DNA of 64,000 nt from Escherichia coli. Its GTDB lineage: Bacteria > Pseudomonadota > Gammaproteobacteria > Enterobacterales > Enterobacteriaceae. Below, one piece after another: positions 37,683 to 45,029 of the stretch (its first letter is position 1; every line of letters starts with the position of its first letter). The notes below the pieces were generated by a model. It had not been told where the DNA came from, searched no databases, and saw only the letters and a list, made by a program, of their open reading frames with translations. The translations under genes were made by a program, and so were the position numbers. The DNA is taken from assembly GCF_041886205.1 (NCBI RefSeq), contig NZ_CP169029.1; one strand, written 5' to 3'.

Positions 37683-40432
<2,750 letters not shown>

Positions 40433-40435
40433 GGA

Positions 40436-41083
40436 ATGGGTAAGATGAACCATCAGGATGAATTGCCGTTAGCGAAAGTCAGCGAAGTTGACGAGGCGAA
40501 GCGGCAATGGTTGCAGGGGATGCGTCACCCCGTTGATACGGTAACCGAACCAGAACCTGCTGAAATCCTGGCTGAGTTCATTCGCCAGCATTCTGCGGCT
40601 GGGCAGCTGGTGGCGCGCGCCGTGTTTCTCTCGCCACCCTATTTGGTTGCAGAAGAGGAACTGTCAGTTTTGCTGGAAAGCATTAAGCAGAACGGAGACT
40701 ACGCGGATATCGCTTGTTTGACGGGAAGCAAGGATGATTACTATTACTCAACGCAGGCCATGAGTGAAAACTACGCGGCGATGTCTTTGCAAGTTGTGGA
40801 GCAGGACATTTGTCGCGCCATTGCACACGCCGTTCGTTTTGAGTGCCAGACGTATCCTCGTCCTTACAAAGTCGCCATGCTGATGCAAGCGCCATATTAC
40901 TTCCAGGAAGCGCAGATTGAAGCCGCGATCGCCGCGATGGATGTTGCACCTGAATATGCCGATATACGGCAGGTGGAGTCATCGACGGCGGTGTTGTACT
41001 TGTTTAGCGAGCGATTTATGACCTATGGCAAGGCTTATGGCTTATGCGAATGGTTCGAGGTAGAGCAGTTTCAGAACCCCTGA
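40436..41083 (+). CDS. ydhW: Uncharacterised protein YdhW
   Basis: 215-aa ORF in conserved position. Confidence 0.85.
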   Translation: MGKMNHQDELPLAKVSEVDEAKRQWLQGMRHPVDTVTEPEPAEILAEFIRQHSAAGQLVARAVFLSPPYLVAEEELSVLLESIKQNGDYADIACLTGSKDDYYYSTQAMSENYAAMSLQVVEQDICRAIAHAVRFECQTYPRPYKVAMLMQAPYYFQEAQIEAAIAAMDVAPEYADIRQVESSTAVLYLFSERFMTYGKAYGLCEWFEVEQFQNP

Positions 41084-41146
41084 AATTTCAGGGAGATGTC
41101 ATGGATAGGGTGGACAGTTGCAGCCACTGCATTAGGGGATAATCAG

Positions 41147-41815
41147 ATGTCCTTCACTCGACGCAAATTTGTTCTGGGGATGGGAACAGTAATCTTTTTT
41201 ACTGGTTCTGCGTCTTCTCTGTTAGCGAACACGAGGCAAGAAAAGGAAGTTCGGTATGCCATGATTCATGACGAGTCACGGTGCAATGGCTGTAATATTT
41301 GCGCCCGCGCATGCCGTAAAACTAACCACGTCCCCGCTCAGGGAAGCCGTTTATCGATAGCACACATTCCAGTCACCGATAACGACAACGAAACGCAGTA
41401 TCACTTTTTTCGCCAGTCATGTCAGCACTGCGAAGATGCTCCGTGCATCGACGTTTGCCCGACGGGGGCATCGTGGCGTGATGAGCAGGGGATCGTGCGG
41501 GTAGAAAAATCGCAGTGCATCGGCTGCAGTTATTGCATTGGCGCTTGTCCGTACCAGGTTCGCTACCTTAACCCTGTCACTAAAGTGGCAGATAAATGTG
41601 ATTTCTGCGCTGAGTCCCGGCTGGCAAAAGGCTTTCCGCCCATTTGCGTCAGCGCTTGTCCGGAACACGCATTGATCTTTGGTCGCGAAGATAGCCCAGA
41701 AATTCAGGCGTGGTTGCAGGAAAATAAATACTATCAATATCAGCTACCTGGTGCCGGGAAACCGCATCTGTATCGCCGGTTCGGTCAACATTTGATTAAA
41801 AAGGAAAATGTATGA
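41147..41815 (+). CDS. ydhX: 4Fe-4S ferredoxin-like protein YdhX (Tat signal)
   Basis: Start taken at MSFTRRKFVLGMGTVIFFTGSASSLLA (twin-arginine motif); ORF track begins 17 codons earlier at 41096. Confidence 0.82.
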   Translation: MSFTRRKFVLGMGTVIFFTGSASSLLANTRQEKEVRYAMIHDESRCNGCNICARACRKTNHVPAQGSRLSIAHIPVTDNDNETQYHFFRQSCQHCEDAPCIDVCPTGASWRDEQGIVRVEKSQCIGCSYCIGACPYQVRYLNPVTKVADKCDFCAESRLAKGFPPICVSACPEHALIFGREDSPEIQAWLQENKYYQYQLPGAGKPHLYRRFGQHLIKKENV

Positions 41816-42597
41816 ACCCGTCGCAACATGCTGAACAGTTTCAGAGCCAGTTAGCGAACTATGTGCCACAGTTCACTCCCGAATTTTGGCCGGTGTGGTT
41901 GATCATTGCCGGAGTATTGCTGGTTGGGATGTGGTTGGTGCTGGGGCTGCACGCCTTGCTTCGTGCTCGTGGCGTGAAGAAATCAGCCACCGATCATGGT
42001 GAGAAGATTTATCTTTACAGCAAAGCGGTCAGATTATGGCACTGGTCGAATGCGTTACTCTTTGTATTGTTGCTGGCAAGTGGGCTGATAAATCACTTTG
42101 CGCTGGTGGGCGCAACTGCGGTCAAAAGTCTGGTTGCGTTGCATGAAGTTTGCGGATTTTTGTTACTCGCATGCTGGCTCGGCTTTGTGCTGATCAATGC
42201 TGTTGGGGGTAATGGTCACCACTATCGCATTCGTCGTCAGGGGTGGCTGGAACGAGCGGCAAAACAAACGCGATTTTATTTGTTTGGCATTATGCAGGGG
42301 GAAGAACATCCTTTCCCGGCAACAACCCAGTCTAAATTTAATCCCTTACAGCAGGTCGCCTATGTTGGTGTCATGTATGGATTGCTGCCGTTGTTACTAT
42401 TGACGGGGCTGCTGTGTCTCTATCCGCAAGCCGTGGGAGATGTGTTTCCTGGCGTAAGATACTGGTTATTGCAGGCGCATTTTGCTCTGGCATTTATAAG
42501 CCTCTTTTTTATCTTCGGTCATCTTTATCTTTGCACCACGGGGCGTACGCCACACGAAACCTTTAAAAGCATGGTCGATGGCTATCACCGGCACTAA
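41812..42597 (+). CDS. ydhU: PhsC-like membrane cytochrome b subunit YdhU
   Basis: 261-aa polytopic membrane ORF overlapping ydhX stop. Confidence 0.85.
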   Translation: MNPSQHAEQFQSQLANYVPQFTPEFWPVWLIIAGVLLVGMWLVLGLHALLRARGVKKSATDHGEKIYLYSKAVRLWHWSNALLFVLLLASGLINHFALVGATAVKSLVALHEVCGFLLLACWLGFVLINAVGGNGHHYRIRRQGWLERAAKQTRFYLFGIMQGEEHPFPATTQSKFNPLQQVAYVGVMYGLLPLLLLTGLLCLYPQAVGDVFPGVRYWLLQAHFALAFISLFFIFGHLYLCTTGRTPHETFKSMVDGYHRH

Positions 42598-42600
42598 CGA

Positions 42601-43413
42601 ATGATCATTACACGAGCAGACCTGCGAGAATGGCGTATCGGAGCGGTGATGTATCGCTGGTTCCTGCGCCATTTCCCACGCGGCGGTAGTTATGCCGATA
42701 TTCATCATGCACTGATTGAGGAAGGATATACGGACTGGGCGGAGAGTCTGGTTGAGTATGCGTGGAAAAAATGGCTGGCGGATGAAAACTTCGCGCATCA
42801 GGAAGTTTCCTCTATGCAAAAACTGGCCACAGACCCCGGAGAGATACCATTTTGCAGTCAGTTTGCCCGCAGCGACGATCATGCTCGCATCGGCTGTTGT
42901 GAGGATAACGCCCGAATCGCAACCGCTGGGTATGCCGCGCAAATTGCCAGTATGGGTTATAGCGTGCGGATTGGAAGTGTCGGCTTTAACAGTCACATTG
43001 GCAGCTCCGGTGAACGCGCACGGGTTGCTGTAACCGGTAATTCTTCGCGGATAAGCAGCGCTGGAGATAGTAGTCGGATTGCGAACACCGGAATGCGAGT
43101 ACGCGTTTGTACATTGGGTGAACGGTGTCATGTCGCCAGTAATGGTGACCTGGCGCAAATCGCCAGCTTTGGCGCAAACGCCAGAATTGCCAACAGCGGC
43201 GACAATGTACACATCATTGCCAGCGGTGAAAATTCAACGGTTGTGAGCACGGGCGTGGTCGACTCAATTATTCTCGGGCCAGGGGGAAGCGCCGCACTGG
43301 CATATCATGACGGCGAAAGAGTTCGCTTCGCCGTCGCCATTGAAGGTGAAAACAATATTCGAGCCGGAGTCCGCTATCGTCTTAATGAACAGCATCAGTT
43401 TGTTGAGTGCTGA
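42601..43413 (+). CDS. ydhT: Uncharacterised protein YdhT, with about 15 tandem 9-residue repeats
   Basis: 270-aa ORF; residues ~95-229 form repeats of the form x-[RQH]-[IV]-x-x-x-G-x-x (ARIATAGYA / AQIASMGYS / VRIGSVGFN / SHIGSSGER ...). Confidence 0.85.
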   Translation: MIITRADLREWRIGAVMYRWFLRHFPRGGSYADIHHALIEEGYTDWAESLVEYAWKKWLADENFAHQEVSSMQKLATDPGEIPFCSQFARSDDHARIGCCEDNARIATAGYAAQIASMGYSVRIGSVGFNSHIGSSGERARVAVTGNSSRISSAGDSSRIANTGMRVRVCTLGERCHVASNGDLAQIASFGANARIANSGDNVHIIASGENSTVVSTGVVDSIILGPGGSAALAYHDGERVRFAVAIEGENNIRAGVRYRLNEQHQFVEC

Positions 43414-43424
43414 TAGCTTTACCT

Positions 43425-45029
43425 TTAATCAAACGAAAGACGCCGACGTGCACGGGATGCAGGTTTTACGACCGCCCGAGCCATCGCCTCACCAATTTCT
43501 GCACATGCCGTAAGTCCCTGAACGAAAGGCTGGTCGTGCATCAACCAGGGCAACGCGCCGAACGCTACGCGTCCACGAATATCTTCGGGTTGCTGTAACG
43601 TATAATCTTCGCCAACATCAGGGATTTCATCCCCTGTTTTCTGTAATTGCTCGCGTAGCCCAGGGAAAGGAATATCTTTCACTTTAAGCGGACGCTGTCC
43701 GCGGGCATCAATAAAAACGTCAAACGAGTAGCTGTTGTCTTCCGTTTTCAGGACGGTGCGCGACTCATTAATTTCCATTTCGTAGTCTTCACCGAGGGCG
43801 AGAATATGAATGATCCCCGCTTCACGTAAGGCCAGCAGCCGACGAATAGACTCTGAAGGGATTGCCGCATAATTATCGATAAAAACCCGGGTAAGGCCTT
43901 TACTGAACCGTTTATGGTCGTGTTCATTCAGATGTGGAACAATTTCCTGTACGGCTTCATGCAGGCGCAGAATGACATAACGCCAGGGAACAGTATGTTT
44001 TTCTCGTTTATTGCGTTCGACTTCCTGGAGATTTTTTTCTGCCCAGTCAAATGGGTCGCGTTGTTTGCGCTCGGCAAACCAGGCTTGAGCAAAGGAATCG
44101 ACATTCAGGCTCTCTAAGGCTATGCGTTGGCTCCAGTCTGGATCAGCAAACTTGATTTCCTCTACTATCAATCTAAATACCCGATCCAAAAGGCCCTCTT
44201 CGCCTTTTTGAATCTCAGCATTTAATGCCTGATCGGTGACAATGTGTAAGGACTCGTAGGGAATAGGGCAATAGAAATCGGCTTCGGGTAAAATACCCGT
44301 GCGCGACATCAACGTGATATTTAGCTTTTCACTTGCGTTATCGCGGTGAAAAACGACGTGTTGTTTATCATCTTCAATGAACGAACCATGCTGAATAGCC
44401 ACTGCCATTGCCGCATCCAGTCCGCTCAAGGATGTTCCCATAATACCCACGTTACACGCATCGACCTTTGCTTCCATCAGGCCTGACCACGGGCTGGGAA
44501 AATACGTTCGGGTTGCTTCTTCTTCATCAGGCCAGACGTGACCCGTGGCAATCACCGCTAAATCAAACGTCTCGCTGGGTAAACCCTGATTTGTAGCGAG
44601 CATGACGCCAGCATTTGTAATTTGCAGATCGGTAACCTGGCATGATTCATAAACAGCCACTGCAAATTTTTGCTTTCGTGCCTGGTCTACTAATCGTAAA
44701 AATTGATCGCGGAAATATTCGCCCAGCAGAATTCGCGGTAAAAACTGACGATCGTGCAAGGTTTCTTTTTTAACGCCATAACGCTGGAGATGGCTGGCTT
44801 CTTGCTTTTGTAGCCATTCGAGATACGTACAATTAATCGGCGGTATTTCAATACTGGCAATATTTGCCAGCATCATTTTTGAGTTTTCCTCATCACTGTA
44901 TGGCATCCCGACACCGGCCTCGTCAGCCTGCTCGAAGATAGAAATAGAAAGTGGAGTTTGTTGCTGTAGAAGCGAGAATAAGGTGTAGATCCCCGTAGGC
45001 CCGGCACCCACAATAGCAATTTTTTTCAT
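43425..45029 (-). CDS. ydhS: FAD/NAD(P)-binding protein YdhS
   Basis: 534-aa ORF with N-terminal Rossmann motif (IAIVGAGPTG). Confidence 0.85.
   Translation of the reverse strand: MKKIAIVGAGPTGIYTLFSLLQQQTPLSISIFEQADEAGVGMPYSDEENSKMMLANIASIEIPPINCTYLEWLQKQEASHLQRYGVKKETLHDRQFLPRILLGEYFRDQFLRLVDQARKQKFAVAVYESCQVTDLQITNAGVMLATNQGLPSETFDLAVIATGHVWPDEEEATRTYFPSPWSGLMEAKVDACNVGIMGTSLSGLDAAMAVAIQHGSFIEDDKQHVVFHRDNASEKLNITLMSRTGILPEADFYCPIPYESLHIVTDQALNAEIQKGEEGLLDRVFRLIVEEIKFADPDWSQRIALESLNVDSFAQAWFAERKQRDPFDWAEKNLQEVERNKREKHTVPWRYVILRLHEAVQEIVPHLNEHDHKRFSKGLTRVFIDNYAAIPSESIRRLLALREAGIIHILALGEDYEMEINESRTVLKTEDNSYSFDVFIDARGQRPLKVKDIPFPGLREQLQKTGDEIPDVGEDYTLQQPEDIRGRVAFGALPWLMHDQPFVQGLTACAEIGEAMARAVVKPASRARRRLSFD

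Follow-up and report, generated by a model that had tools for sequence, protein, structure and literature searches.

YdhT of Escherichia coli, a predicted capped nonapeptide solenoid at the end of the ydh operon with relatives in phage accessory genes

YdhT, the product of the last gene of the ydhYVWXUT operon of Escherichia coli, is strongly predicted to be a repeat solenoid with capped ends. We analyzed its gene in a 64,000-nucleotide stretch of E. coli DNA (NCBI RefSeq assembly GCF_041886205.1, contig NZ_CP169029.1), referred to here as the window, in which the ydhT coding sequence occupies 42601..43413 on the + strand (270 residues plus the stop codon). The analysis further shows or strongly predicts that the protein belongs to a modular, phage-associated family with interchangeable heads, that ydhT was captured into the operon in a lineage-specific manner, and that it is under purifying selection. 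We tentatively favor the view that YdhT is a captured phage adaptor, which is now a lineage-specific accessory of the operon and no core assembly factor.

The identity of the gene is given by its match to the NCBIfam equivalog model NF007410, "protein YdhT" (490.4 bits against a cut-off of 300 bits, E = 1.5e-147), where residues 2-270 align to profile positions 1-269. The window copy matches annotated ydhT genes at 100% identity, and of 5426 complete E. coli genomes, 5417 have the gene. Neither a signal peptide nor a hydrophobic segment is present in the protein, whose maximal Kyte-Doolittle hydropathy over 19 residues is 1.23.

A sequence-only reading of the window had described 15 nonapeptides from residue 95 to residue 229, and all of them read as listed: the array (42883..43287, + strand) comprises 15 units with one predicted beta-strand each and the consensus [AS]-[RQH]-[IV]-[AG]-S-x-G-x-x. 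The periodicity is borne out by BLOSUM62 autocorrelation of residues 86-235 against 1000 shuffles, which peaks at multiples of nine only (z = 11.5, 10.1, 10.3, and 9.2 at lags 9, 18, 27, and 36), with z <= 0.7 at the remaining lags. The Gly at position 7 had been called invariant and is not, being present in 13 of the 15 units, with Glu in unit 1 and Pro in unit 15; the canonical core of the array is 13 consecutive Gly-bearing units (residues 104-220; 42910..43260, + strand). Of a proposed [RQH]-[IV] pair at positions 2-3, the second half holds in 15/15 units and the first in 13/15. Ahead of unit 1 lies a probable degenerate unit 0 (SQFARSDDH, residues 86-94; 42856..42882, + strand), which would open the solenoid with a strand at residues 87-90 in the model, and whose equivalent in Citrobacter orthologues (Citrobacter amalonaticus) has the Gly. 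The array segment is basic, with an isoelectric point (pI) of 8.5, 11 Arg, and 3 His. A tandem repeat at the DNA level was ruled out, the sole direct repeat in the array DNA being a single 14-nt pair on the + strand, GCGCAAATTGCCAG at 42937..42950 and GCGCAAATCGCCAG at 43153..43166, which marks the start of units 3 and 11 (AQIAS in each) with a spacing of 216 nt, or 8 units. Because this pair is all that the DNA holds, the periodicity exists at the protein level only.

The same reading had proposed a beta-solenoid from these repeats, and structure prediction supports it. An AlphaFold2 (AF2) model of YdhT, built on a 17-sequence alignment, has a mean predicted local distance difference test score (pLDDT) of 84.7, rising to 85-96 over the repeats, and a predicted template modeling score (pTM) of 0.66. 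Here, sixteen short strands follow one another at 9-residue spacing, one per unit. Each coil of the solenoid would span 18 residues, or two units, as in the RTX beta-roll without its Ca2+ sites, and the array would then amount to about 7.5 coils in a rod of roughly 3.5 nm. In such a coil, the core would be filled by inward-facing residues, namely the Ile or Val at position 3 and the small ones at positions 1 and 5, while the Arg, His, or Gln at position 2 would form outward ladders on the outer faces, and the turn would be made by the position-7 Gly. Since YdhT is cytoplasmic, folding of this solenoid must be Ca2+-independent. In profile searches, the whole protein matched only CyaA among solved structures (E = 0.14), and the Pfam copy used returned nothing at E <= 1 but DUF6876 at 0.034.

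Both ends of the rod carry a domain of their own. At the N-terminus, residues 1-80 (42601..42840, + strand) form a helical head, probably Pfam YdhT_N (PF27195), with the conserved motif YRWFLRxFPxGGxY, whose RWFLxxFPxGG portion is invariant in alignment A1; the Pfam assignment comes from precomputed matches of all orthologues and of P0001, a cluster representative with 98% identity. The model places head helices at residues 5-11, 15-24, 31-41, 44-60, and 63-77, the last of which lies in a segment predicted with low confidence (residues 61-83). At the C-terminus, residues 221-270 (43261..43410, + strand) make up an all-beta domain of pLDDT 90-96. No other part of the family is as conserved as this domain (LGxGG...YHDGxRxRF...EGExxI.AGV.Y.L...FVE), as seen in its invariant columns and in the family alignment A4, and the 9-residue strand spacing of the rod runs on into it, to about residue 247 (strands 230-236 and 241-247). 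It belongs to no Pfam family in searches with 42 members, and profile comparison found no credible match for it in the PDB.

A profile search of 1.84 billion representatives places YdhT in a family of 1193 representative clusters at E <= 1e-3, or 493 at E <= 1e-10. Across 114 representatives, the unit consensus is [AS][QKR][IL][AG][SA]SG[DNY]x; 97% of the 1733 units have the position-7 Gly, and each member has 4-28 units (median 15). The rod is followed by a C-terminal domain of about 55 residues, whose end lies a median of 58 residues past the last anchoring Gly. Many members have near-perfect arrays, such as SQLAASGDG repeated 21 times in P0081. The heads vary: among the 114 representatives, 32 have a YdhT_N-like head and at least 45 a DUF7666-like one (CxxGFHxC), and PcfJ-like, collagen-like, and DarG-like Macro heads also occur in the family. 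Pfam covers the heads only (YdhT_N, DUF7666), the rod receiving an occasional DUF3060 match at most. That YdhT_N might be a degenerate DUF7666, as the resemblance of "C..G..WF" to "C..GFH.C" hinted, was rejected at an hhalign probability of 0.6%. The metagenomic protein P0071 (546 residues) begins with a DarG-like macrodomain (PADLOC E = 1.9e-20), continues with a DUF7666-like domain and 22 perfect units, and ends with the C-terminal domain; it may serve phages in counter-defence against ADP-ribosylation of the DarT type. This Macro head is the only part that PADLOC-DB recognizes, as DarG; neither YdhT nor the rod and C-terminal domain of phage members has a match there.

Most of this family is phage-borne. 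Relatives belong to three PHROGs without a known function (phrog_4433, phrog_18079, and phrog_27197), 13 phage proteins in BFVD have the same fold, and 67 cultured phage genomes encode a member. Temperate phages with a member in a classical accessory slot include ES18 and several Pseudomonas phages. In the three contexts examined, phage members occupy early, non-structural accessory positions. One phage genome encodes P0058, a full-length protein headed by YdhT_N, among small accessory open reading frames (ORFs) upstream of the large terminase gene; a temperate phage (L051) has its member flanked by the repressor gene on one side and by exonuclease, Gam, and integrase genes on the other; and in Salmonella phage ES18, the DUF7666-headed gp53 (L055 4986-5834) directly follows an N-like antiterminator in the P_L operon, with cIII, kil, erf, and abc2 downstream, beyond a putative terminator. 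In lambda and P22, this P_L slot holds ral and sieB. Depositors have labeled related phage genes "putative ADP-ribosyltransferase," "c-type lectin precursor," and "collagen-like protein."

For bacterial ydhT, we scanned one genome per species, followed by tblastn, and counted loci with enough upstream DNA: in every qualifying Enterobacterales locus, ydhT lies directly downstream of ydhY-V-W-X-(U), across nine genera (Escherichia, Citrobacter, Limnobaculum, Brenneria, Serratia, Proteus, Symbiopectobacterium, Edwardsiella, and Musicola). The locus of Edwardsiella tarda (L002 4690-9954) reads ydhY-V-W-X-T, lacking the ydhU cytochrome b gene, and adjoins the nap nitrate reductase cluster. Loci of the family outside Enterobacterales, as well as viral ones, have no ydh genes alongside. 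Conversely, the operons of Telmatospirillum and of a metagenomic contig (L057), whose YdhV proteins are 78% and 68% identical, read Y-V-W-X-U, and both tblastn and a hidden Markov model (HMM) search found no ydhT in either. These operons mark ydhT as a lineage-specific addition to a five-gene operon.

Within Enterobacterales, the array has been preserved unit by unit. From E. coli to Proteus, the units correspond one-to-one (e.g., ...GNS xRISSAGxG xRIAxxGMR), which indicates that the chromosomal array is old and frozen, and not homogenised. Within Escherichia, the ratio of nonsynonymous to synonymous substitution rates (dN/dS) of ydhT is 0.05-0.06, similar to that of ydhU and lower than that of ydhW, with 0.009-0.014 in the C-terminal domain, 0.03-0.05 in the repeats, and 0.05-0.08 in the head. 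Rare in-frame length variants lose whole units. An E. coli variant of 198 residues (P0009) has a 72-residue, 8-unit deletion whose size equals the 216-nt spacing of the 14-nt pair, which suggests that it arose by repeat-mediated deletion. In Serratia symbiotica CWBI, a line evolved experimentally gained a 54-bp in-frame deletion in "ydhT_1" (1413 nt, 470 residues) (PMC12505973), exactly two nonapeptide units; the "_1" suffix implies paralogues, possibly prophage-borne. Truncated E. coli alleles also occur (P0006, P0026, P0033, and P0035, in clusters of 169, 56, 156, and 30 against 6294 intact), and the frameshift in P0006 replaces the entire conserved C-terminal domain. In Candidatus Symbiopectobacterium sp. 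"North America" (L047, 7974-8882), ydhT is frameshifted after unit 7 and ydhX is degraded (49% identity), a pattern consistent with decay of the whole operon.

The E. coli annotation confirms that ydhT closes the operon, as had been proposed. Upstream, on the + strand between 37683 and 42597 (37683..42597), lie ydhY (37683-38309), ydhV (38330-40432), ydhW (40445-41083), ydhX (41147-41815), and ydhU (41812-42597), whose stop precedes the ydhT start by 3 nt, a gap consistent with translational coupling. No promoter-like site was found near ydhT, and the flanking annotation shows a redox operon and no type I secretion gene. YdhY and YdhX have N-termini of the twin-arginine translocation (Tat) type; that of YdhY (window 37683-37810), LTRLEFLRISGKGLAGLTIAPALLSLLGC, has a single-Arg Tat-like motif followed by an apparent lipobox (LLGC). 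The Ydh enzyme is periplasmic by way of Tat signals (PMC13328260, PMC9103625) and is a class V tungsten/molybdenum oxidoreductase for which no substrate or physiology is known (PMC13328260), and YdhV has no identified chaperone (PMC9103625). Recombinant YdhV overexpressed without the rest of the operon gains a bis-Mo-molybdopterin (bis-Mo-MPT) cofactor, as Reschke et al. (2019) are cited in PMC13328260. On the far side, ydhT and ydhS converge with 11 nt separating their stop codons (window 43411-43425), no terminator-like element was found in this interval, and the pair appears in a published list as a candidate transcriptional-overlap "excludon" (PMC12288877). An antisense ORF of 248 residues (window 42466-43212, - strand) spans most of ydhT and is probably a by-product of repetitive, stop-poor codon composition.

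The retention of ydhW in operons without ydhT makes YdhW, not YdhT, the conserved unknown of the operon, and it is the better candidate of the two for a core maturation factor. YdhW is acidic (pI 4.5) and has no match in the PDB or in the Pfam copy used. Its orthologues (the L034, L038, L030, and L033 set) have a twin-arginine-like motif near the N-terminus that is not followed by a hydrophobic region, reading ISRRRWLLPLS in Proteus, SKRRLLLPLS in Brenneria, and AKRQWLQGM in E. coli. When YdhW and YdhT were modeled by AF2 as a fusion of paired orthologues from 18 genomes (alignment A3), YdhW reached a pLDDT of 82-91 in two similar helix-helix-strand-strand halves.

How might a phage-type module have come to close a redox operon? 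We propose that YdhT is a cytoplasmic, non-catalytic protein of three modules, a YdhT_N head, a rigid solenoid rod, and an all-beta C-terminal domain, of which rod and C-terminal domain represent a unit common in phage early and accessory genes with exchangeable heads. One YdhT_N-headed copy may have been captured at the 3′ end of an existing ydhYVWXU operon in an ancestor of the Enterobacterales, and kept since then by purifying selection. Most likely, the rod would act as a fixed-length spacer, with the head and the C-terminal domain as binding ends that keep two partners a set distance apart. In Enterobacterales, YdhT would then assist the Ydh system as a dispensable, lineage-specific accessory, perhaps during handling in the cytoplasm ahead of Tat export; such a role is conceivable given a periplasmic, Tat-exported enzyme and no known chaperone for YdhV. 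A bolder version, which we regard as unlikely, holds that the rod and C-terminal domain are a universal phage carrier that positions effector heads (DUF7666, DarG-like macrodomain, PcfJ-like) on a conserved host target early in infection, with YdhT as an anciently exapted copy, taken up more than one bacterial order-depth ago and now accessory to a periplasmic molybdo/tungsto-enzyme. Were it true, a phage host-takeover protein would have been rewired into respiratory enzyme biogenesis or regulation.

Several observations weigh against the favored account. On the structural side, a Foldseek search of the PDB with YdhT returned no solved structure below E = 0.1, and the 18-residue coil geometry was derived from fold matches and the residue pattern. 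With regard to partners, the YdhW-YdhT fusion gave no confident complex, with a pTM of 0.52 against 0.66 for YdhT alone; helix 63-77 of YdhT does rise in pLDDT in the fusion model (from about 45 to about 84), but the alignments differ, which confounds the comparison. The C-terminal domain is common to phage proteins in hosts that lack the operon, and its ligand in YdhT is therefore probably not Ydh-specific. YdhT is also the fastest-diverging protein of the operon between E. coli and Proteus (34-35% identity, compared to 41% for YdhW and 80% for YdhV), and frameshifted alleles (P0006, P0026, and P0035), a minority, are found in hundreds of E. coli sequences.

Some of these points would fit a domesticated phage conflict gene, serving superinfection exclusion, counter-defence, or another phage-host function, that rides on the FNR-controlled ydh transcript and is unrelated to the oxidoreductase. 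A family that is overwhelmingly phage-borne and sits in early or accessory slots of ral/sieB-type genes, with DarG-like (E = 1.9e-20) and PcfJ-like heads typical of conflict systems, is in line with such an origin, as are the otherwise identical operons without ydhT outside Enterobacterales, the rapid divergence of YdhT, and the tolerance of frameshift alleles. However, the place of the gene behind ydhX/ydhU is strictly kept in nine genera, even in Edwardsiella without ydhU, the 3-nt gap is consistent with translational coupling to ydhU, a dN/dS of ~0.05 gives no signal of diversifying selection, PADLOC has no match for YdhT, and its units are frozen, unlike the homogenised phage copies. We consider this explanation the strongest of the rivals, though rather unlikely. 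A published phage-host interaction signal for ydhT (PMC12579225) was discounted, as the gene there is a species marker that separates E. coli from Salmonella in a pangenome of both.

The sequence-only reading had suggested instead that the repeat scaffold might be an assembly or maturation factor for the oxidoreductase; its solenoid part agrees with the model and the periodicity, while the orthologous operons without ydhT are difficult to square with a core role. A dedicated factor required for YdhV/YdhY/YdhX, in molybdenum cofactor (Moco) or Fe-S insertion or as a Tat proofreading chaperone, draws on the conservation of the operon and the co-transcription of ydhT, on the cytoplasmic maturation that an enzyme with Tat-type YdhY and YdhX N-termini needs (PMC13328260), and on the lack of an identified YdhV chaperone (PMC9103625). 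It becomes improbable when operons with 68-78% identical YdhV are wholly missing the gene, when YdhW is the conserved unknown, and when overexpressed YdhV obtains bis-Mo-MPT alone, in the account of Reschke et al. (2019) given in PMC13328260; moreover, YdhT has no similarity to TorD/DmsD/NarJ-type chaperones, its SufD match is generic to beta-helices, and its conserved C-terminal domain is common to phages. Solenoids with open ends are known to polymerise, and a self-assembling filament or scaffold, bactofilin- or curli-like, with solenoids stacked end to end to organize the enzyme at the membrane, would recall them as well as the "nanowire" filaments of class I-IV tungsten oxidoreductases (WORs) (PMC13328260). 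Yet folded domains cover both ends of the rod in the model, no bactofilin or curlin Pfam match is found, and a fixed number of individually conserved units fits a defined length better than a polymer, which makes a filament very unlikely. The most far-fetched of the alternatives, in our judgment, is a structural family of trimeric fibre-like beta-helices, as in phage tail fibres or spikes: some members match tail-fibre PHROGs through their repeats (phrog_8745, E = 8e-9) and some relatives have collagen-like segments, but the monomer model of YdhT is confident, phage members lie in early or regulatory regions outside tail modules, and YdhT itself is chromosomal and cytoplasmic, within a redox operon.

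Part of this picture is already known, as the repetitiveness of YdhT is visible in any public structure prediction and its head is in Pfam. In the literature, we found no account that treats the nonapeptide repeat as a family or sets it apart from RTX, none of the phage distribution of the family or of the lineage-specific capture into the ydh operon, and nothing on DUF7666 or DUF3060. The module that emerges would be a Ca2+-independent, cytoplasmic, phage-associated nonapeptide beta-roll. YdhT is among the remaining E. coli K-12 proteins without a function, in a system whose physiology is itself unknown (PMC13328260). With YdhW as the better candidate for core maturation, YdhT is better viewed as accessory or phage-related. 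For phage biologists, the family is a concrete, uncharacterised set of early genes (> 1,000 clusters), sometimes fused to a DarG-like macrodomain, and ES18 offers a cultured, genetically tractable phage with a member (gp53).

Compared to known systems, YdhT resembles the redox enzyme maturation proteins TorD, DmsD, NarJ, and NapD by context only, as a small cytoplasmic protein in the operon of a Tat-exported molybdo/tungsto-enzyme. TorD is all-helical and NapD has a ferredoxin fold, whereas YdhT is a predicted beta-solenoid without a sequence match to them, and it is missing from orthologous operons outside Enterobacterales. Curli CsgA and the bactofilin-type cytoplasmic solenoids differ in repeat length and motif, and YdhT, in contrast, is capped at both ends and gives no evidence of polymerisation; its array has no period of 5 or 6, and no Pfam match was found to the bactofilin, curlin, pentapeptide, or hexapeptide repeat families. 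With the RTX proteins (GGxGxDxUx; e.g., CyaA blocks IV-V and the MpAFP RIV antifreeze domain), YdhT has in common a nonapeptide periodicity of the kind that forms a parallel beta-roll. Here, the YdhT units are without the GGxGxD Ca2+ motif, contain one Gly each, lack a conserved Asp at the position it has in RTX, and have a longer strand (5 residues) and a shorter turn (4 residues), and YdhT, with no signal peptide and no secretion gene in its flanking annotation, is cytoplasmic and not type I secreted. The nearest relatives are the phage proteins of phrog_4433 and phrog_18079, such as ES18 gp53, which have the same nonapeptide rod and C-terminal domain and are clear homologues, with profile E values that reach 1e-40 and beyond. 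YdhT matches phrog_4433 at E = 1.8e-6 over residues 110-270, and the profile search retrieves DUF7666-headed phage proteins at E = 1e-25 to 1e-50. These phage proteins, without known function themselves, have a DUF7666 head where YdhT has YdhT_N and no Pfam DUF7666 match, and their genes lie in early operons whereas ydhT lies in a redox operon; their arrays are near-perfect and homogenised, while that of YdhT is degenerate and frozen.

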